From Pseudomonadota bacterium (GTDB lineage Bacteria; Pseudomonadota; Alphaproteobacteria; Caedimonadales; UBA1908), in the NCBI GenBank assembly GCA_020161545.1, contig JAIUNT010000004.1:2863-66862 (forward strand): a DNA stretch of 64,000 nt, written 5' to 3'. Position 1 is the first letter of the stretch. The number at the start of each line of letters is the position of its first letter. The notes beneath the pieces are model-generated. The model made no database searches, was not told where the DNA came from, and worked only from the letters and a program-made list of their open reading frames with translations. Shown here one piece after another: positions 35,781-45,112 of the stretch. Position numbers and translations under genes: made by a program.

Positions 35781-37172
35781 TTGACGACACGGACCTATGT
35801 GCGCTGGACCTCCGGCGCCCTATGCCTGATAATTGCGTGTGCCATTGCCGTGACGGATTATTATCGTCACCGGGAAGTAGCCCAGCTCACGCCAGCGCCT
35901 CCTGCGCCCCCACCCCCGCCTGTGAAGGTTGTTGAGGAAGAGGTTGAACCCACAGGTCCCGTGGATGAAACCCTCCAAGTCCTTAAAGGGGACACCCTCT
36001 CCAGCGTCCTTTTGCGCGCCAAAATTGACCAAACCCAAGTTCATGACGCTGTGGAGGCTCTCACAAAAGTCTTCAATGCCAAAGACTTGCGCCCAGATCA
36101 TCAGCTGTTTGTGACGTACATGCCTCCCAAAGAAAAGGGAGGGGATAGGGATCTCCTGAGTCTTTACATTCGCCCCTCCATTGAGTGCGAGATTACGGTA
36201 GAAAAAGGGGATGATGGATCTTACCGCGCTCAAAAAGAGGTCAAAAAGCTCATCAAGACGACCCAGATTGCCAAGGGTGAGATCAAAGAGAGTCTCTTTT
36301 TAGACGCGAAGAAACTCAAGGTCCCTCCCAAGGTCATCACCGAGATGGTGAAGGTCCTCAGCCACGACGTGGACTTCCAGCGTGACTTTCACCCAGGCGA
36401 CACCTTTGGACTTGTGTACGACACTGAAAAAGACCCCGAAGGACTTTTGGAGCGTCCGGGGCAACTGTCCTTTGTTTACCTGAAACTAAAGGATAAGGAG
36501 CTGCGTTTTTATAACTTTAAGCCACGCAGCAGTCCTCCCGGCTACTATGACCTGAAGGGCTCAAGCACACGTAAGGGACTACTTCGTACACCTGTAGACG
36601 GCGCGCGTCTTTCCTCAGGCTTTGGCAGCCGACGCCATCCGGTCCTTGGGTACCGCAAGGATCATAAGGGCGTGGACTTTGCCGCGCCCATAGGGACCCC
36701 TGTCATGTCCGCAGGTGATGGCGTCGTGGAAAAAGTGGGACCCTTTAGCAGTTATGGCAACTATATCCGTGTGCGTCACAACAGTGAAATCTCAACGGCC
36801 TATGCGCATCTCAGTCGCTTTGCGACGGGTCTTCGTCCAGGCAAAGCTGTGCGTCAGGGACAGATTATTGGATACATTGGCATGACGGGGCGCACCACGG
36901 GACCGCATCTCCATTACGAGCTCATCCGTTTTGGGAAGCAAGTGGATCCAAAACACGTCAAGACCATGCCAGCAGGCAAACTAGGCGGGGCCGATCTGTC
37001 TGCCTTTAAGGCGCTTGTGGCCAGCATCAATAAGCGCTTTGAGGCGTACAAGCCCCCTGTGCAGCCCGCGGAAGAGCCCGATGACGCTGAGGCCTCCACC
37101 CCGACACCTGCGGCAGAGAATGATGTGCCAACATCGGACGAGCTTCAAAAGGCGGATAGCAAAAAAGTGTGA
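35781..37172 (+). CDS. M23-family metallopeptidase
   Basis: C-terminal HKGVDFAAPIGTPVMSAGDGVV...GNYIRVRHN...TAYAHLSRF...GMTGRTTGPHLHYEL. An N-terminal TM anchor and Pro-rich linker are present. The TTG start is uncertain. Confidence 0.88.
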   Translation: MTTRTYVRWTSGALCLIIACAIAVTDYYRHREVAQLTPAPPAPPPPPVKVVEEEVEPTGPVDETLQVLKGDTLSSVLLRAKIDQTQVHDAVEALTKVFNAKDLRPDHQLFVTYMPPKEKGGDRDLLSLYIRPSIECEITVEKGDDGSYRAQKEVKKLIKTTQIAKGEIKESLFLDAKKLKVPPKVITEMVKVLSHDVDFQRDFHPGDTFGLVYDTEKDPEGLLERPGQLSFVYLKLKDKELRFYNFKPRSSPPGYYDLKGSSTRKGLLRTPVDGARLSSGFGSRRHPVLGYRKDHKGVDFAAPIGTPVMSAGDGVVEKVGPFSSYGNYIRVRHNSEISTAYAHLSRFATGLRPGKAVRQGQIIGYIGMTGRTTGPHLHYELIRFGKQVDPKHVKTMPAGKLGGADLSAFKALVASINKRFEAYKPPVQPAEEPDDAEASTPTPAAENDVPTSDELQKADSKKV

Positions 37173-37178
37173 TGGGAG

Positions 37179-37255
37179 TGGCGCGCCCTGCAGGATTCGA
37201 ACCTGCGACACTCGGCTTAGAAGGCCGATGCTCTATCCAGCTGAGCTAAGGGCGC
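37179..37255 (-). tRNA. tRNA-Arg (anticodon TCT)
   Basis: Hand-folded on the minus strand. Acceptor gcgccct/agggcgc; D arm gctc-agctggata-gagc; anticodon stem tcggc/gccga with loop ctTCTaa; T arm gcagg-ttcgaat-cctgc; encoded CCA. Confidence 0.9.
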
Positions 37256-37354
37256 GTGAGGCATACTCTATCCCAAACATGCCTCTTGGTAAAGACTCAT
37301 GCACAAGGTGCACAGCATTTTAAAATCTTTCTGCCCGTGTGTTTCGGTGATGTT

Positions 37355-38836
37355 TTATTTTGGGACCCCCGCGTGGTCTTCTATTGCACGCCTAAGCGCT
37401 TGAAGCCTTTGAATTGGATCAACAATGTCTGCAATGCGTTCCAGGTGTGTATTATCTATACCTTCTAATACACTTTCTAATATACCTCCTAAAATAGTGG
37501 AAGGCATCCTGATTTCACCCTTAAGAAGTCGAACGTAGATATTCACATTTTGCGCCGTAATGTGCTGGGCGCGCAAAGCATGTGCGCGCGCGCTAGGCTC
37601 AAAACCCGCCGCGGCAATGAGGGCAAGCCGCTCGTCAGACACGTCTTCGGCGGCTTCTAAAAGTTCGTCAATCGCCAACAAGCCCCGAGAAAGCCGAACG
37701 TAGATATTCACATTTTGCGCCGTAATCTGAGCAGCGCGCAAGGCAAACAAGCGATTTGAAGGCTCAAACCTTGCTGTGGCAATGAGGGCAATCCGCTCGT
37801 CGGGCAGGCCTTTGGCCACTTTTAAAACCCATTCTTTTTGGCATCCATTTTTAAGAAGTAGGGCGTAGTCCTTGGCATTTTGCGCCGTAATCTGATCAGC
37901 GCGTAAAGCACACGCACGATCGTCTGGCTCAAAGCCCGCCGCGGCAATGAAGGCAAGTCTCTCATCAGAAACGCCTTCGGCGGCTTCTAAGAGTTTGTCA
38001 GGTTGATACATATTCATAAGAAGTCGAACGTAGTCCTTGGCATTTTGCGCCGTAATCTGATCAGCGCGCAAAGCACACACACGATCTTTTGGCTCAAAAC
38101 CCGCCGCGGCAATGAAAGCAAGCCTTTCGAGGTGCACATGTTCTGTGGCCTGAAGAAAGGTGTCTGTGTCCGAGACACCGTTAAGAAGTACGGCGTAGCT
38201 TTTCGCGTTATCCTTTGTGATGCGACTATCTGTGAAGACCTTCGCCATCACCTCCTGGGGAAACTGGGCCCCTACAATAATGTTCACCCTTTCATCGGAA
38301 GCTTGTATTGATGCATCAAGGATTTCTTGCACATAACGAGGATTGGTGACACGCTCAAAAATCCTGACATACCGAGAGACATTGTGCTCATGAATAAACG
38401 GGGCCTTCAAAACCGCGATGTGTGCTGCCCCCACAAAACCAGCGTTTGCGATGAGTATGAGCTTTTCAAGCGTCACCTCACGGGCGGCTCGCAAAAGTTC
38501 GACTACATTGAGGGCATCTTTGGCAAGTTTCACAAGAGGTGGTGTGTTTTTTTCATCAATAAAATCATAGATTTGTATCAATTCATCTAAATCGTATTCT
38601 AGATAACTATTTTTTTTGAAGAGCAGCTTCTCTTGATTTGTATCACAGGATTCCATTTCCGCAGGACCCCTGCAGACGGCCTCGGGTGTATCATTGTTTG
38701 TATCCACTATTCCAACGGGTACACTTGACGCGGCATGGGATCTATCCGGGTCATTGACATCAAAGGGCACTGCTTGGGTACAAGTATTCCATAGGCATGT
38801 TGCCGCCAAAATCTGCATGGGGCATTTGAAGTACAT
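37355..38836 (-). CDS. tandem-repeat protein (about seven 55-aa repeats), probable signal peptide
   Basis: The block ERLAFIAAAGFEP..R..ALRA..ITAQN...YV.LL recurs at aa 237, 292, 347 and 402 (exact 55-aa period). Degenerate copies start at about aa 124, 182 and 466. Confidence 0.7.
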   Translation of the reverse strand: MYFKCPMQILAATCLWNTCTQAVPFDVNDPDRSHAASSVPVGIVDTNNDTPEAVCRGPAEMESCDTNQEKLLFKKNSYLEYDLDELIQIYDFIDEKNTPPLVKLAKDALNVVELLRAAREVTLEKLILIANAGFVGAAHIAVLKAPFIHEHNVSRYVRIFERVTNPRYVQEILDASIQASDERVNIIVGAQFPQEVMAKVFTDSRITKDNAKSYAVLLNGVSDTDTFLQATEHVHLERLAFIAAAGFEPKDRVCALRADQITAQNAKDYVRLLMNMYQPDKLLEAAEGVSDERLAFIAAAGFEPDDRACALRADQITAQNAKDYALLLKNGCQKEWVLKVAKGLPDERIALIATARFEPSNRLFALRAAQITAQNVNIYVRLSRGLLAIDELLEAAEDVSDERLALIAAAGFEPSARAHALRAQHITAQNVNIYVRLLKGEIRMPSTILGGILESVLEGIDNTHLERIADIVDPIQRLQALRRAIEDHAGVPK

Positions 38837-38970
38837 CGCGCGTTCCTGAGTTAAAAAATAGCTCTAAGTCATTCCTATGAGATAAAATATAAGAAGTCAA
38901 ACACCCTGTCTGCCGCTTGCCATTTATATGGTTAAGGATTTATAAAATAGCTCTTTTTTGCTGAGTGCGG

Positions 38971-41742
38971 TTACTCCCATATACTGATGCGGTCGGTCTT
39001 TCGTTGAAAGGCGGACGCAAAAGATTTTGTGCGTGCCCGCAAAAGGATCAGGCGTCCCTCAGGGGTGCGGGTGTACACAAGGTCTGCTTGCCCCACGTAT
39101 CGCTGCCACCGCTTTACAAAAAACGTCGCGTGCTCTTTGTTTTGACCCATGAGGGCGGGGACGCTGTGGTAATTTGTGCGCAGGAAAGTTCCTATTTTGC
39201 TTGTATGAACTAGAAGGTAGCGCGGGCTTTCAGGGGGGCTCAGGAGCTCTTGCATGGCGTCTAAAAAGACTTTGCGCTCGAGGGCGGTTGCGCCCTCAAG
39301 GCCGCAGTAAAGAACGCCCATTTTGTCTTTCATGACCTGAACGCGCAGATTTTTGGGATTTGTTTTCACAAGATCCATGTTCTGTAAGGTTTCAAGCACC
39401 GCCCAGGCTGCCTGCTTCATGGCGCCTTCAAGGGTCCCGTTACGCACAAAAAGAAAGAGGGCTTTAAGGAGCTTAGGAAGGGCCAGAACACCTGCAACAC
39501 CCAAGGATAGGGCAAGAAAGGCCAAGGGATTTTTTGACCCGCGCCCGGCGCCCAAAATGTGACTTGCCCAACTGCCTCCCCAAATCAGCGCGTTTAGGCA
39601 AACGGCCTTGAGTGTGTGGGCGTAAACAAACCCCATGGGTGCGTAGGTGGCCTCAAGTTTTTCACGCATGTTTGGCTTGGGGCTTGCCCCCTCCAAGGCG
39701 CGGTGCCACATCTGGGATAAAGTATCTCGTTTCCTGGCCCTCATAAGCGTTGCCTCATTGAGACGTGCAACGCCATTTTTCGACCAGTTTACCTTGGACA
39801 AATCAAGACGCTTGAATCCATTTTCAATGAGATAGGGCCGTCCATAAGACACGCCTTCAAAGGCACGAAAGCGTCGGCGCAGAAGGGTGACGTCCTCGCC
39901 AATATGCTCCTGAATTTCATCGAATGTATTGATTTCTTTGGTGGTGCCCCGCTCACCGAAAAAGGAATCCTCTTGCCTGTCAAGGGGCACAGGATCAATG
40001 GTGGCCAGGTGCCAAATGTGGGACGTTTTATGGGGGCCCTTGGCATGGGTACGAATGGCCCGCCCGCGCATTTGGTTGGAGAGCATATAGGACCCCACGT
40101 GGCTGGCAAGGATCAAGGTATTGAGACTTGGCGCGTCCCATCCTTCGCCCAAAAGCGCTTGGGTGCCCACCAGCGCCTGGATGGCACCCGCTTGGAAAAC
40201 CTCCGTGATCAGCTGCACAATTTTTTGTTTCCCAACCCCGCGCATTTGAACGTTTAAATACGCTCCGTCGTGGGGGGTGGGGGTGCATATCAAATGACTT
40301 GGATCAAGGCCCGCCTCGGCTGCAATGCGCTCAAGTACAGGGCGTGCGCCCCTTGGTATCAACACAAGGGATCCCGTGAGGAGGCCTAGCTTGAGGTCCG
40401 CAAGACCCAGGCGGCGCAAGGATTCAAAGATGGGCACAACGCCAATTTTTTGAGGGGGTGAGAGATTTTCCGGATGTCGCGGCAGTTCATCTGCGCGGAT
40501 GTAGTCAGCCAGAATCACCATGCGCAAGTCTTGCCCGAGGGCACCGTATTCGGCCCGTGTGATCTGGGCGATGCTCTCAAGCTTGCCAAGGCTGGCCGCC
40601 AGCATTTTGCCGATCTTGCGCGCGTGGTCAATGGTAACCTGGTGGCGCTCGGTAGCGCCAATGCGGGAGAGATCCTGTCGGATGGGCTCAAGAACATCTT
40701 TGTGCGCCTCGAAATGTGACGCATGTGTGTAAAGGACGTTTGTGAGGAGGGTTTCCAACCACTGGGGCGTCATCGGGGGTGGGGCCTCTTTGCCTGTGGC
40801 CAGGATTTTGGCCACGTCCGGGTGTGGCTTGCGCCCGCTGGCGTTGAGAAAGATGACCATGGCAGAGAAAAATGCGCTGTCCCCTAAAATGTCTTCCACG
40901 TGTGTGAGGGGTGTGCGGACCCAGGGATGGGTGGCAAGGACCTCCACAAAAGAGTTATTCCTCTTAAGATTTTGAAGAAAATGAGAGATTTCTTGTTTGA
41001 ACTGTGTGAGTTTTTCGCGCTCCTTACCCACAGGCAAAGAAAAGTGGATATAGTCTTGGTGGGGGCATAGATCCCCCGCCTTCACAAGCTCCGGCACGCT
41101 GATCTCGGCGTCGATGGGGCCGCAAAGCGCCTCATACTTTTGCCACTGGGCGTACTCCACATCATAGGGAGGCGTCGCGGTGAGGGAGATAATACCTGGT
41201 TTTTGAAGGGCCGCCTCAAGTTTTGTGAGCGCTTTCCACCACTCGTTGCGCAGATGATGGGCCTCATCCAAGATGAGCGTGCCAATATTTTGGGCGATGA
41301 GGCCTTTGATAATCTCTTTTTCCCGTGCGGGATTTGTTTTGCCAGATGCGCTCTTTTCTTCGTCTTCTGGGTCAGCCTCCTGCGCGTCTAGCGCTTCCCC
41401 TGCCCCGCAAAAAGCCGCGTGTAGCGCTTGATAGGTGATGACCGTCAAGGGCCTTGGGCGCCGTGCGTCTGTGGAAATCCAATCGAGGTGAGGCGCGCCC
41501 CGTGGCAAAAACAGGGACTGCAGGCGCTCTATCCACTGATTGCGGATGGTGAGTGTGGGCGCTAAAATAAGGGTCGGCTTTGCGCGCCTACGCATGAGCT
41601 CCAACCCTAAAACCGTTTTGCCCGATCCAGGGGCTGCCACAATATTGAGACGCCTTTTTGTGAGGTTATCGCCGTGCTCCTCAAGGACGCGCGCTTGATA
41701 ATCTCGCCATTGTCCTTGAAAGGTCATGTGTGAAAAGGTCAT
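38971..41742 (-). CDS. SF2 (ResIII/DEAH-type) helicase with hydrophobic segments and unassigned C-terminal domain
   Basis: 923 aa. Motif I is AAPGSGKT, motif II is LILDEAHH, motif III is SLTATP, and motifs V/VI are LLGEGWDAPSLNTLILAS...SNQMRGRAIR. About 330 aa are inserted between the two RecA-like halves. Two hydrophobic stretches (AVCLNALIWGGSWASHILGAG and LAFLALSLGVAGVLALPKLLKALFLFV) precede a roughly 150-aa C-terminal domain. Confidence 0.85.
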   Translation of the reverse strand: MTFSHMTFQGQWRDYQARVLEEHGDNLTKRRLNIVAAPGSGKTVLGLELMRRRAKPTLILAPTLTIRNQWIERLQSLFLPRGAPHLDWISTDARRPRPLTVITYQALHAAFCGAGEALDAQEADPEDEEKSASGKTNPAREKEIIKGLIAQNIGTLILDEAHHLRNEWWKALTKLEAALQKPGIISLTATPPYDVEYAQWQKYEALCGPIDAEISVPELVKAGDLCPHQDYIHFSLPVGKEREKLTQFKQEISHFLQNLKRNNSFVEVLATHPWVRTPLTHVEDILGDSAFFSAMVIFLNASGRKPHPDVAKILATGKEAPPPMTPQWLETLLTNVLYTHASHFEAHKDVLEPIRQDLSRIGATERHQVTIDHARKIGKMLAASLGKLESIAQITRAEYGALGQDLRMVILADYIRADELPRHPENLSPPQKIGVVPIFESLRRLGLADLKLGLLTGSLVLIPRGARPVLERIAAEAGLDPSHLICTPTPHDGAYLNVQMRGVGKQKIVQLITEVFQAGAIQALVGTQALLGEGWDAPSLNTLILASHVGSYMLSNQMRGRAIRTHAKGPHKTSHIWHLATIDPVPLDRQEDSFFGERGTTKEINTFDEIQEHIGEDVTLLRRRFRAFEGVSYGRPYLIENGFKRLDLSKVNWSKNGVARLNEATLMRARKRDTLSQMWHRALEGASPKPNMREKLEATYAPMGFVYAHTLKAVCLNALIWGGSWASHILGAGRGSKNPLAFLALSLGVAGVLALPKLLKALFLFVRNGTLEGAMKQAAWAVLETLQNMDLVKTNPKNLRVQVMKDKMGVLYCGLEGATALERKVFLDAMQELLSPPESPRYLLVHTSKIGTFLRTNYHSVPALMGQNKEHATFFVKRWQRYVGQADLVYTRTPEGRLILLRARTKSFASAFQRKTDRISIWE

Positions 41743-41821
41743 GTAGTGGTACCAGGTTATGTGTGTAACAGATTATAGCGAAACCTTTATCTTTTAGGGA
41801 GAGATTGGGTATCCCTTGCGT

Positions 41822-42457
41822 TTATTGCCTCAAACGTTGAAGTGATTTTTCCAAATCCTCATACGACCAGGTCAGCATTTCTTGAAGCTTTGACCAGTCT
41901 TCTTCTCGTACCTCTTTCAGGGTATCTTGAAATTGATCACGCACGTTTGCGGCGTAGGCACGCCATAAAGTTGCGCGCTCATAATTTTTGGGTGTCCCAC
42001 CGTATAACAGGGCATAAACCTGAGCCATCATAAGTGCAATTTTATCAGGACTGCATTCCTCAGGGTTGCGCCGCGCGACCCACCATTTCAACTCTGCGGC
42101 CGCAAGCAGATGGGCTTCAAAAGTGTATGGGGATGTTTTTCTCATTTCTTCAAAGGCTGCAGTTAAAAGGGGCAAAACGGTTTCGTCATACACCTCTTTT
42201 GGTGTGTCTTGTGGTGCTTGCCCAAATGCCATAACTGCTTTCGCATAGAGGGGAAGGACGTCCTTAACATTTTGGATTCTATAGAGTTTTTCCAACATAG
42301 TCCCAAGGGATTCTTGTGCGCGTTCCAGATCGTTATGGTAATAAGCCCGCCACACGGTGATTTCGTTTGGCGCAATGTCGTCAAAGGCGCAAGCATAAAC
42401 ATTTTCAAGAAATGAAAGAGTTAACAACACTAAAACAGAGATTTTTCGCGAGATCAT
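41822..42457 (-). CDS. secreted helical hypothetical protein
   Basis: Signal peptide MISRKISVLVLLTLSFLENVYA. The ATG is preceded by AAAGGAG. No family recognised. Confidence 0.6.
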   Translation of the reverse strand: MISRKISVLVLLTLSFLENVYACAFDDIAPNEITVWRAYYHNDLERAQESLGTMLEKLYRIQNVKDVLPLYAKAVMAFGQAPQDTPKEVYDETVLPLLTAAFEEMRKTSPYTFEAHLLAAAELKWWVARRNPEECSPDKIALMMAQVYALLYGGTPKNYERATLWRAYAANVRDQFQDTLKEVREEDWSKLQEMLTWSYEDLEKSLQRLRQ

Positions 42458-42597
42458 ATTTTACTCCTTTCATGCGACTGAGGTGTGAGTCCGGGCGCTG
42501 TCACGCTGTGCACAGATCTGTTATCTAGGTGATCCTCAAGGACGCGTGCTTGAGAGTTTTGCCATTGCTCTTGAAATGAAAACTGTTTGAACATCAT
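42454..42597 (-). pseudogene. eroded copy of the helicase 5' end (47 codons), overlapping the start of the downstream gene
   Basis: Reads MMFKQFSFQEQWQNSQARVLEDHLDNRSVHSVTAPG..., versus MTFQGQWRDYQARVLEEHGDNLTKRRLNIVAAPGSGKT in the full helicase. The DNA is roughly two-thirds identical by eye (ctcaaggacgcg[t/c]gcttga...gccattg..cttgaaa). The stop TGA overlaps the ATG of the 211-aa gene (ATATGA). Confidence 0.55.
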
Positions 42598-42703
42598 AAA
42601 CGTTTGAAAATAACCGTGAGCGCAACCCTATCATAAAAGATCCCATGGGCGAGATTATTTCATGCTAAGATACTGGGGAGAAAAACAGGATAAAGGGAGC
42701 AAC

Positions 42704-43840: not shown

Positions 43841-45112
43841 ATGGGTGATCTGTCCCACCTGACGGAAATCGCGCTGGTTGTGTCTGTGGCGCTGGCGTGC
43901 GGTCTTTTCTTTGAACGGTTCAAGCAACCAGCGATTCTGGGCTATATTCTGGCCGGAATCCTCTTGGGGCCATCTTTACTTGGACTCGTGCACGACCGCG
44001 CGGCCGTTGAATCCTTGGCTGAACTTGGCATTCTCATGCTGCTCTTTCTTATCGGGATGGAGCTTGATCTGCGCGCCCTCAAGGAAGTGTGGCTTGTCAG
44101 CTTGCTGACCACCCTATTCCAGCTGGGTGTGAGCCTTCTGGTGCTTGTCGGCCTGGGAAAGGTCTTTGGCCTACCCTTCGGTTTGTCCATCGTGCTGGCG
44201 TGCGCCCTGGCGCTCAGCAGTACGGCGGTTGCCATCAAGATGCTTGAAAACATTAATGAGCTTTCCACGCAAACGGGGCGTTTGACCATCGGTGTGCTCA
44301 TTGCCCAGGACTTGGCCATCGTACCCATGATCCTTATCCTGAAAGGTATGAGCGGCGGTTCATTAAGTCCACTCATTGCTGTGAAGGTGCTTTTTGCCAT
44401 GGGGCTTTTGGGGGCCCTCATTTGGTACCTCAGTCGCAAGAGCCGCATTCACATTCCCTTTGTTAAGGTGGTGGCTGAGAATTCCGATCTGACGCCATTG
44501 GCGGCTCTGTTGTTTTGTTTTGGGATGGCCGTTGTGGCGGGTGTCATGGGGCTGTCGGCTGCGTACGGGGCGTTTCTAGGTGGCCTTGTCCTTGGCAACA
44601 CGTCCGAGAGCCATACCATGCTCAAAGTCACGCGTCCCATCCAAAGCGTCCTGATGATGGTGTTTTTCCTGTCCATCGGGCTTTTGATGGATCTGGGGTA
44701 CATTTGGGATCATTTGGTAAAGGTCTTGGTGCTCCTTGCCTTTATTACCATCGGAAAAACGGCCCTCAATATCTTCATTCTCCATGTGCTGCGCCAGCCC
44801 TGGGAACAGGCTTTCTTATCAGGTCTTGTGCTGTCACAGATGGGTGAGTTTGCCTTTTTATTGGCCACAGTGGGGGAGGAAAGCGGCCTGCTTGGCGACG
44901 ACGGTAATCGCCTCATCGTATCTTTGGCCGCCTTGTCCCTGGCGCTGAGCCCCTTCTGGATGATTGCCGCCCGGCGTCTCCATGACGCGGCGCCCCAGGG
45001 CATCAGCACCCTGAATCAGCTCTTCTCCCTTATTTTTGGTAAGGAAATCAGAGCACTTTCACGCATGGCAGACCGCTTGTCAGGTGACAAGGACCCCTCT
45101 TCCGATGCCTGA
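43841..45112 (+). CDS. cation:proton antiporter (CPA2/Kef-type membrane domain)
   Basis: 423 aa and polytopic. The N-terminal QPAILGYILAGILLGPSLLG is typical of Na+/H+ and K+/H+ exchanger family proteins. Confidence 0.85.
   Translation: MGDLSHLTEIALVVSVALACGLFFERFKQPAILGYILAGILLGPSLLGLVHDRAAVESLAELGILMLLFLIGMELDLRALKEVWLVSLLTTLFQLGVSLLVLVGLGKVFGLPFGLSIVLACALALSSTAVAIKMLENINELSTQTGRLTIGVLIAQDLAIVPMILILKGMSGGSLSPLIAVKVLFAMGLLGALIWYLSRKSRIHIPFVKVVAENSDLTPLAALLFCFGMAVVAGVMGLSAAYGAFLGGLVLGNTSESHTMLKVTRPIQSVLMMVFFLSIGLLMDLGYIWDHLVKVLVLLAFITIGKTALNIFILHVLRQPWEQAFLSGLVLSQMGEFAFLLATVGEESGLLGDDGNRLIVSLAALSLALSPFWMIAARRLHDAAPQGISTLNQLFSLIFGKEIRALSRMADRLSGDKDPSSDA

Follow-up and report, generated by a model that had tools for sequence, protein, structure and literature searches.

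A widespread family of stand-alone superfamily 2 ATPases with an XPB-like motor and a predicted membrane hairpin

Introduction

XPB is a motor that stays fixed while it pumps duplex DNA. In two multi-gene defence systems, Zorya (ZorAB with ZorD) and Kiwa (KwaAB), the membrane and the DNA-binding functions belong to different subunits. Superfamily 2 (SF2) helicases are some of the most thoroughly studied enzymes, yet to our knowledge none is integral to the membrane, and we know of no Hef/FANCM or RIG-I-like protein that is inserted into it; our literature searches likewise returned no description of a membrane-anchored or XPB-like bacterial helicase with the architecture considered here. The subject of this work is P0001, a 923-residue SF2 helicase encoded at positions 38971-41742 on the minus strand of a 64,000-nucleotide stretch of alphaproteobacterial DNA (Caedimonadales; GenBank assembly GCA_020161545.1, contig JAIUNT010000004.1, positions 2,863 to 66,862), which we refer to as the window. 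Its sequence and modelled structure suggest that P0001 is functional and belongs to a family of stand-alone SF2 ATPases that is widespread but has not been characterised. We favour, with moderate confidence, the view that it is a membrane-tethered XPB-like motor that works by itself on duplex nucleic acid on the cytoplasmic side of the membrane, and that its basic C-terminal tail serves as a second grip.

The idea of a component at the membrane that is coupled to a protein acting on DNA is common to these systems (for Kiwa, PMC11785009) and to our reading of P0001. We found no sequence or fold relation between P0001 and either Zorya or Kiwa and, unlike these systems, P0001 would join anchor and motor in a single chain. 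Hna is, like P0001, a large stand-alone SF2 protein present in Alphaproteobacteria and other phyla, but it is defined by a C-terminal PD-(D/E)XK nuclease (PMC13381803); Pfam, fold and conservation analyses revealed neither this domain nor its residue set in P0001, which has a predicted membrane hairpin instead. The Res subunits of type I and III restriction systems share the Pfam ResIII core with P0001, which differs from them in having no endonuclease domain and in that there is no methyltransferase among the 264 genes located within two positions of the family members inspected. Finally, the similarities to PbeA (E 4e-10) and to the dnd_restrict_1/TIGR04095 group (E 3e-6) are weak, confined to the motor and far below the family thresholds, and no dnd or pbe genes were present nearby in 80 loci.

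Results and Discussion

P0001 is intact and has a predicted two-lobe motor of the XPB type

The open reading frame (ORF) list and the translation agree that the 923 codons of the helicase gene are open throughout. A first-pass annotation of the window had described a ResIII/DEAH-type SF2 helicase at this position, which is what we find: all the motifs that it quoted are present, with VAAPGSGKT at residues 35-43, DEAH at 159-162, SLTATP at 186-191, LLGEGWDAP at 530-538 and QMRGRAIR at 557-564. Pfam assigned ResIII to residues 11-192 (E 2e-19) and matched Helicase_C weakly to residues 505-565, while the SNF2-related domain PF00176 stayed below its gathering score (23.6 bits versus a cut-off of 24.9). 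Residues that are invariant across 60 homologues are all kept in P0001. Comparison with a sister genome that is ~92% identical in DNA (its public record carries the label Candidatus Puniceispirillum sp.) gave a ratio of nonsynonymous to synonymous substitution rates (dN/dS) of 0.124 for the helicase at a dS of 0.30, the neighbouring genes ranging from 0.01 to 0.13. By this measure of sequence change, the helicase is under purifying selection.

The full-chain AlphaFold2 model, built on the 60 homologues, has a mean predicted local distance difference test score (pLDDT) of 81 and a predicted TM-score (pTM) of 0.80. RecA-like lobe 1 (residues 1-235; 41038-41742, minus strand, as are all features of P0001 given below) carries WRDYQ, the Walker A sequence GSGKT, DEAH and TAT, and RecA-like lobe 2 (residues 406-581; 40000-40527), delimited by the weak Helicase_C match and the model, carries motifs IV-VI and includes the best conserved blocks of the helicase (521-560). 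Between the lobes lies an all-helical insert of ~165 residues (239-405; 40528-41028), which is modelled as ten helices with pLDDT mostly 78-95; it is conserved throughout the family and has no Pfam match. The first-pass annotation had placed the RecA halves about 330 residues apart. They are indeed separated, but the distance was overstated, as it comprised this insert together with the first half of lobe 2, which in the model begins at about residue 406. Conservation and the model define a post-core region (582-702; 39637-39999) composed of a variable acidic linker and a conserved mixed region (616-700) of two helices and a strand with an RRFxxFxG...IENGxxRL block, in which D617, R623, R624, F625, I639, G642, R645, N662, R672 and W679 are conserved.

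The only significant matches of P0001 in sequence-profile searches of the PDB were archaeal XPB/Rad25 proteins. Structure comparison gave a score of 19 for XPB/Ssl2 in TFIIH (~380 residues aligned, root-mean-square deviation 4.0), up to 17.7 for archaeal XPB, 16.8 for Hef (399 residues aligned) and ~15 for SNF2-type and RIG-I-like helicases. The model thus shows the two-lobe motor fold of the XPB type, and its core can be described as XPB/Hef-like with a helical insert. P0001 shares with XPB/Rad25/Ssl2 an RxYQ-type N-terminal motif, DEAH and TAT. It is nevertheless, to judge from its sequence, not an XPB orthologue: it reached 36.9 bits against a cut-off of 610 for the XPB/Rad25 equivalog NF045503 of NCBIfam, and this over residues 11-108 only; its helicase motifs begin at residue 12, leaving no room for the N-terminal damage-recognition domain of XPB, which is missing; the position of the RED motif after TATP is occupied by PYD; no gene resembling that of the XPB partner nuclease Bax1 neighbours the family in 80 loci; and the 165-residue helical insert, the hydrophobic hairpin and the orphan tail of P0001 are all without a counterpart in XPB. 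The place of the helical insert between the lobes is reminiscent of Hef/FANCM and RIG-I-like proteins, with which the whole chain gives strong structural matches, but there is no family match with them at the sequence level and P0001 contains neither the Hef nuclease nor the RIG-I CARD or CTD.

The hydrophobic hairpin is conserved as a property, and the tail is an orphan domain

Two hydrophobic stretches follow the core, as had been noticed before; in the model they form a hairpin of two 30-residue helices, 703-732 and 739-768, which together occupy residues 703-768 (39439-39636). The second helix is strongly hydrophobic (Kyte-Doolittle ~2.0 over 19 residues and 2.24 over 17), the first moderately so. 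In 119 close homologues, the segment at residues 741-760 has a mean hydropathy of 1.81 despite low sequence identity. In a more diverse set of 78 homologues, two hydrophobic windows are kept in 72, the means over 17 residues being 1.70 and 2.28, and the loop between them ranges from 2 to 26 residues (median 14). Judged by the sequences, then, the hairpin is conserved as hydrophobicity and not as sequence, and such poor sequence conservation is expected of a lipid-facing segment. Across the same 78 proteins, lysine and arginine amount to 0.18 and 0.25 per residue in the two flanks as against 0.12 in the loop, whereas for aspartate and glutamate the loop has the higher value (0.11, as against 0.04 and 0.01 in the flanks). 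Basic flanks and a more acidic loop correspond to the positive-inside pattern of a hairpin whose two ends lie in the cytoplasm, an orientation that is also needed because the motor is ATP-dependent. In all, 72 of the 78 homologues combine two hydrophobic helices of membrane length with a positive-inside bias. These features make membrane insertion with this topology likely, and they support, as a prediction, the earlier suggestion that the helicase is membrane-associated.

The remaining ~155 residues (769-923; 38974-39438) form an alpha/beta domain rich in conserved arginine, lysine and tryptophan, in agreement with the unassigned domain of ~150 residues that the first-pass annotation had placed after the hydrophobic stretches. 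In total, ~310 C-terminal residues of the helicase have no Pfam coverage. A separate model of residues 610-923 gave pLDDT values of 85-98 for the alpha/beta part, and the tail returned no convincing match from Foldseek against the PDB, from the viral collection BFVD, from Pfam run on 78 members or from the ESM Atlas. The conserved residues of the tail (R841, Y842, K869, W879, R892, R897, R904 and W922) contain no acidic/histidine constellation of the kind seen in nucleases. R846 and D857, which more than 95% of the close homologues retain, are jointly replaced by H and N in the lineage of the window, and the same pair change has arisen independently in a Thalassospira homologue. Because the two residues change together in two lineages, they look like a structural contact pair, and D857, the one conserved aspartate, does not appear to be catalytic. 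A GIY-YIG-like nuclease reading of the PRY...DYH hairpin was considered and dropped, since no nuclease fold was returned and R846 and D857 covary as a structural pair. Pfam, NCBIfam, PADLOC and fold searches found no nuclease, methylase or other partner domain in P0001, as had been stated before. Our reading of the tail is that it has a binding function, with nucleic acid as the probable ligand.

Taken together, these elements suggest how a membrane-tethered motor might work. The two-helix hairpin would dip into or cross the cytoplasmic membrane, leaving both the motor and the basic alpha/beta tail on the cytoplasmic face. The motor, immobilised in this way, would grip duplex nucleic acid, more probably DNA, and pull it past the anchor at the expense of ATP, the tail rich in arginine, lysine and tryptophan providing a second grip. 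Such a motor could reel in DNA, detach it or strip protein from it at the membrane. As there is no nuclease, it would be expected to remodel rather than to cut.

Several observations weigh against a membrane-tethered DNA motor. The first helix of P0001 itself is only moderately hydrophobic (Kyte-Doolittle 1.29 over 17 residues), its loop is short and basic (GRGSKN), and confidence in the model of the hairpin is low (pLDDT 50-78). That the tail grips nucleic acid is a guess, since its best fold matches are generic (Z at most 7.3). The lineage of the window differs at ten sites that are otherwise conserved in at least 90% of homologues, including E199Q, and these departures could mean that the activity of the helicase is altered. 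In addition, RIG-I-like RNA helicases also match the motor core in Foldseek.

The points concerning the hairpin would also fit a soluble helicase in which the two helices form a buried or oligomerising stalk. The first helix holds H709, K712, N717 and H728, the loop bears R and K, and AlphaFold sets the helices as an antiparallel pair attached to the tail domain. We consider such a stalk improbable, because both helices are hydrophobic across the 78 homologues, their sequence drifts and their loop varies in length while hydrophobicity is kept, and the charges obey the positive-inside rule; moreover, low pLDDT is confined to the hairpin, which is typical of an exposed membrane segment.

The nature of the substrate bears on a further alternative, namely that P0001 is a membrane-associated RNA helicase that remodels or senses RNA duplexes close to the membrane, along the lines of RIG-I-like or degradosome helicases. 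Foldseek aligned 720-770 columns to the helicases RIG-I, MDA5, LGP2, Dicer and DRH-1, which also have a helical insert domain; weak tail matches included RRM and Cas6-type ferredoxin-like RNA binders, and a single locus of the family has RtcR as a neighbour. However, the motifs and the Pfam and NCBIfam matches point to ResIII/XPB, type I restriction and Dnd restriction, all of them DNA enzymes, the matching PHROG families are annotated as DNA helicases, and the RRM-like matches are at noise level. An RNA helicase appears slightly less probable than a soluble stalk, and DNA rather than RNA seems to be the substrate of the membrane-tethered motor that we favour.

With regard to E199, it may be mentioned that this residue is invariant in 58 other homologues and that Q is found in the proteins of the window and of the sister genome.

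The family is large, old and patchily distributed

More than 6,600 significant matches came from a word-indexed search, and the best 120 were nearly all 880-970 residues long and aligned over their full length. A scan that took one genome per species recovered at least 582 loci. The best 80 of these include loci from Alphaproteobacteria, Bacteroidota, Bacillota, Planctomycetota, Acidobacteriota, Omnitrophota, Thermodesulfobacteriota and Thorarchaeota; the idea that the helicase is one of a set of lineage-specific genes does not survive this spread over many phyla. A profile of the 314 C-terminal residues was run against 1.84 billion representatives, with clusters formed at 50% identity, and matched 1,733 clusters at E <= 0.001 and 1,309 at 1e-10. 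In every case among the matches listed, the module ends at the last residue of the protein and is fused to this helicase; it was not found in proteins longer than 1,617 residues, which is slight evidence that no larger fusions exist. As the module is always C-terminal in this helicase and other fusions were not seen, the hairpin and the tail appear to be exclusive to this family. Short proteins with the module (170-550 residues, with recurrent forms of ~350 residues) were considered as separate architectures and rejected: their sources are contigs of 1-5 kb, so that they are fragments.

In a FastTree phylogeny of 78 proteins, for which only local support values are available and whose loci are a non-random sample, each phylum forms a clade or nearly so, the 9 changes of phylum label being the minimum possible, and there is some mixing of families inside phyla. 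The coherence of the phyla implies that the family is old. The archaeal copies, including those of Thorarchaeota (L005, L015, L019, L020, L031 and L063), form a single well-supported clade nested among bacterial clades, which is compatible with a single transfer from a bacterium to an archaeon. Several of the archaeal loci have the gene clusters c6, c7 and c8 as common neighbours.

Within these groups the gene is often missing. Of 41 relatives, 2 have it, which includes only 2 of the 4 genomes in its own genus. Two other genera were surveyed at 81 species each: the genus of locus L037 has the gene in 11, with two of the copies broken, and the genus of L017 has it in 7. The two broken copies, in G056 and G063, are split by a stop codon or a frameshift and are natural pseudogenes. 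Among 72,556 plasmid records we found two full-length copies, both on non-mobilizable plasmids, and in the phage collection the only hits were two unannotated faecal contigs labelled "Bacteriophage sp.", one of them carrying a full-length copy. The picture is that of an old, dispensable and self-sufficient gene that is often lost and moves mainly between related organisms, a distribution that is unlike that of a housekeeping repair enzyme and also unlike that of the usual defence-island gene. With ~1,300-1,700 clusters the family is large, and it reaches the Asgard archaea; learning what a membrane-bound DNA motor of this kind does might bring to light a step in DNA uptake, nucleoid-membrane coupling or defence that has so far gone unrecognised.

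Neighbourhoods give little support to a role in defence

The first-pass annotation had proposed, as a speculation, that the helicase acts in defence. According to this proposal, a single-gene anti-phage or anti-plasmid system would station its helicase at the membrane, where it would meet foreign DNA on entry and block or eject it. The patchy, accessory distribution with its two broken copies would suit such a role, as would the mixing within phyla in the tree, the location of the helicase at a synteny breakpoint (see below) and the weak similarity of its core to PbeA.

For 80 loci, every ORF within 10 kb of the gene was assigned to a cluster; the neighbouring ORFs were called by a crude longest-ORF script, and some small genes may be wrong. 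None of the non-helicase clusters occurred in more than 13 of the 80 loci and none had a fixed position, so that neighbourhood conservation, which had been suggested as a check, revealed no conserved partner gene. Directly beside the helicase lie genes for response regulators, GNAT acetyltransferases, UDG, DUF1294, ABC transporters, thioredoxins and similar proteins, and the loci do not consistently lie in a housekeeping DNA-repair context either. A LexA box preceded the gene in 1 of 15 loci from Alphaproteobacteria and in none of 10 from Bacillota, giving no sign of SOS control. At an E-value of at most 1e-10, PADLOC models matched ~8 of 134 immediate and ~5 of 130 second neighbours, that is, ~13 of the 264 neighbours within two genes (~5%), the rest being ordinary genes; a few loci do adjoin defence genes (DpdF, MADS, PARIS AriA and BrxH-like). 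A profile search of P0001 itself against PADLOC-DB 2.0.0, also proposed as a check, gave no full-length system match: the best model was PbeA (E 3.8e-10), which matched the motor only, and all others had E > 1e-6.

The defence proposal gains nothing from PADLOC, whose matches reflect the generic helicase core, or from the gene context. The absence of a nuclease or other effector domain and the near absence of the gene from plasmids and phages speak against it, and the phylum-coherent clades of the family are unlike those of freely exchanged defence genes. We regard single-gene defence as unlikely and as unsupported by the present data, although the patchy distribution keeps an accessory or conflict role possible. 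A more elaborate variant, which we hold to be somewhat less likely again, is that the family acts as a one-protein sensor-effector, in which the XPB/RIG-I-like motor loads or polymerises on nucleic acid at the membrane that is foreign or out of place and either expels or immobilises it or clusters the hairpins to permeabilise the membrane. If this were true, the family would be the first SF2 helicase known to be integral to the membrane and to take part in immunity or DNA traffic.

A lineage-restricted operon was seen in four planctomycete loci (L006, L010, L014 and L036), in which a small gene of 119-137 codons (cluster c9) precedes the helicase by 3-6 nucleotides and shares its strand; in two of them, a gene of ~180 codons (c3) follows directly downstream.

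In the window, recent insertions flank an older helicase gene

The order of genes given for the window before is correct: on the minus strand, an eroded copy of the helicase 5' end, a gene for a 211-residue protein, the helicase and a gene with repeats stand next to tRNA-Arg. The interpretation of these genes as one lineage-specific defence block needs to be corrected, and the block does not work as a unit. Apart from two segments, the window and the sister genome (locus L002, genome G003) are collinear; both segments are window-specific insertions according to comparison with this genome and with metagenomes. The first, of ~0.8 kb (41722-42519, minus strand), contains the 211-residue gene (41822-42457), which encodes a signal peptide and is single-copy in the genome. 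The second, of ~1.67 kb (37303-38967, minus strand), contains a gene for a repeat protein of 493 residues (37355-38836). Both are missing from the sister genome, in which the helicase lies directly between its upstream neighbour and tRNA-Arg(TCT) (37179-37255 in the window, minus strand, identified with ARAGORN), and from a 9.4-kb contig of a wastewater run. In place of the larger insertion, the sister genome has ~25 nucleotides and the wastewater contig 21 (joining 37303 to 38967), and the latter joins 41721 to 42609 at the smaller one. Since independent soil metagenome contigs bridge both junctions with 0-1 mismatches, the arrangement of the window is not a misassembly, and inserted and uninserted forms both occur in public metagenomes. 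The neighbours are thus recent insertions, whereas the helicase is an older resident.

The upstream insertion has left a trace of its origin. The eroded duplicate of the helicase 5' end (42490-42597, minus strand; 51% identity over 39 residues by tblastn) and the functional 5' end form a 78-nucleotide direct repeat with 73% identity, which matches the neutral divergence between the two genomes (dS 0.30). The DNA upstream of the eroded copy is nearly identical to that upstream of the sister helicase start, only two of the first 43 aligned bases being mismatched, whereas no relation to it is seen in the DNA that precedes the functional start at 41742. This pattern indicates that the insertion, in the region 41665-42597, duplicated ~80-110 nucleotides of the helicase 5' end, and the eroded copy retains the ancestral promoter, 5' untranslated region and start codon of the helicase. 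The inserted 211-residue gene now lies behind them and has thus captured the expression signals of the helicase. A promoter consensus search found no more sites than in shuffled sequence. In a metagenomic run labelled as cDNA, two short identical contigs covered 38486-38636 and 39374-39576; the run may be DNA and is uninformative on expression.

These events raise the question of whether the helicase is a decaying relic in a reduced genome, with no current function. In favour of this, foreign genes have been inserted at both of its ends, one of them displacing the original promoter, two other species of the genus do not have the gene, and the protein shows the ten departures from conserved residues described above. 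Against it, the 923-codon frame has stayed open in two genomes at a dS of 0.30 and with a dN/dS of 0.124, all catalytic motifs are intact, and the duplicated 5' end restored a complete start. A relic is hardly credible on these grounds.

In G001 and G002, the two congeners that do not have the helicase, 120-170 kb separate the genes that flank the helicase region in the window (35781-37172 and 43841-45112). This indicates that the helicase sits at a synteny breakpoint; with the flanks so distant, an empty site could not be defined in either genome. In both congeners, the 463-codon gene is followed by tRNA-Phe and not by tRNA-Arg. An attachment-site search around the helicase found no direct repeat derived from a tRNA.

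The region of the 493-residue gene holds repeats of 165 nucleotides. An activated-sludge contig is without exactly one of these units (joining 37863 to 38029), which suggests that the number of repeats in this gene varies, and distant paralogous repeats occur on another contig of the same genome (G000:C56), in ORFs of up to 1,367 residues.

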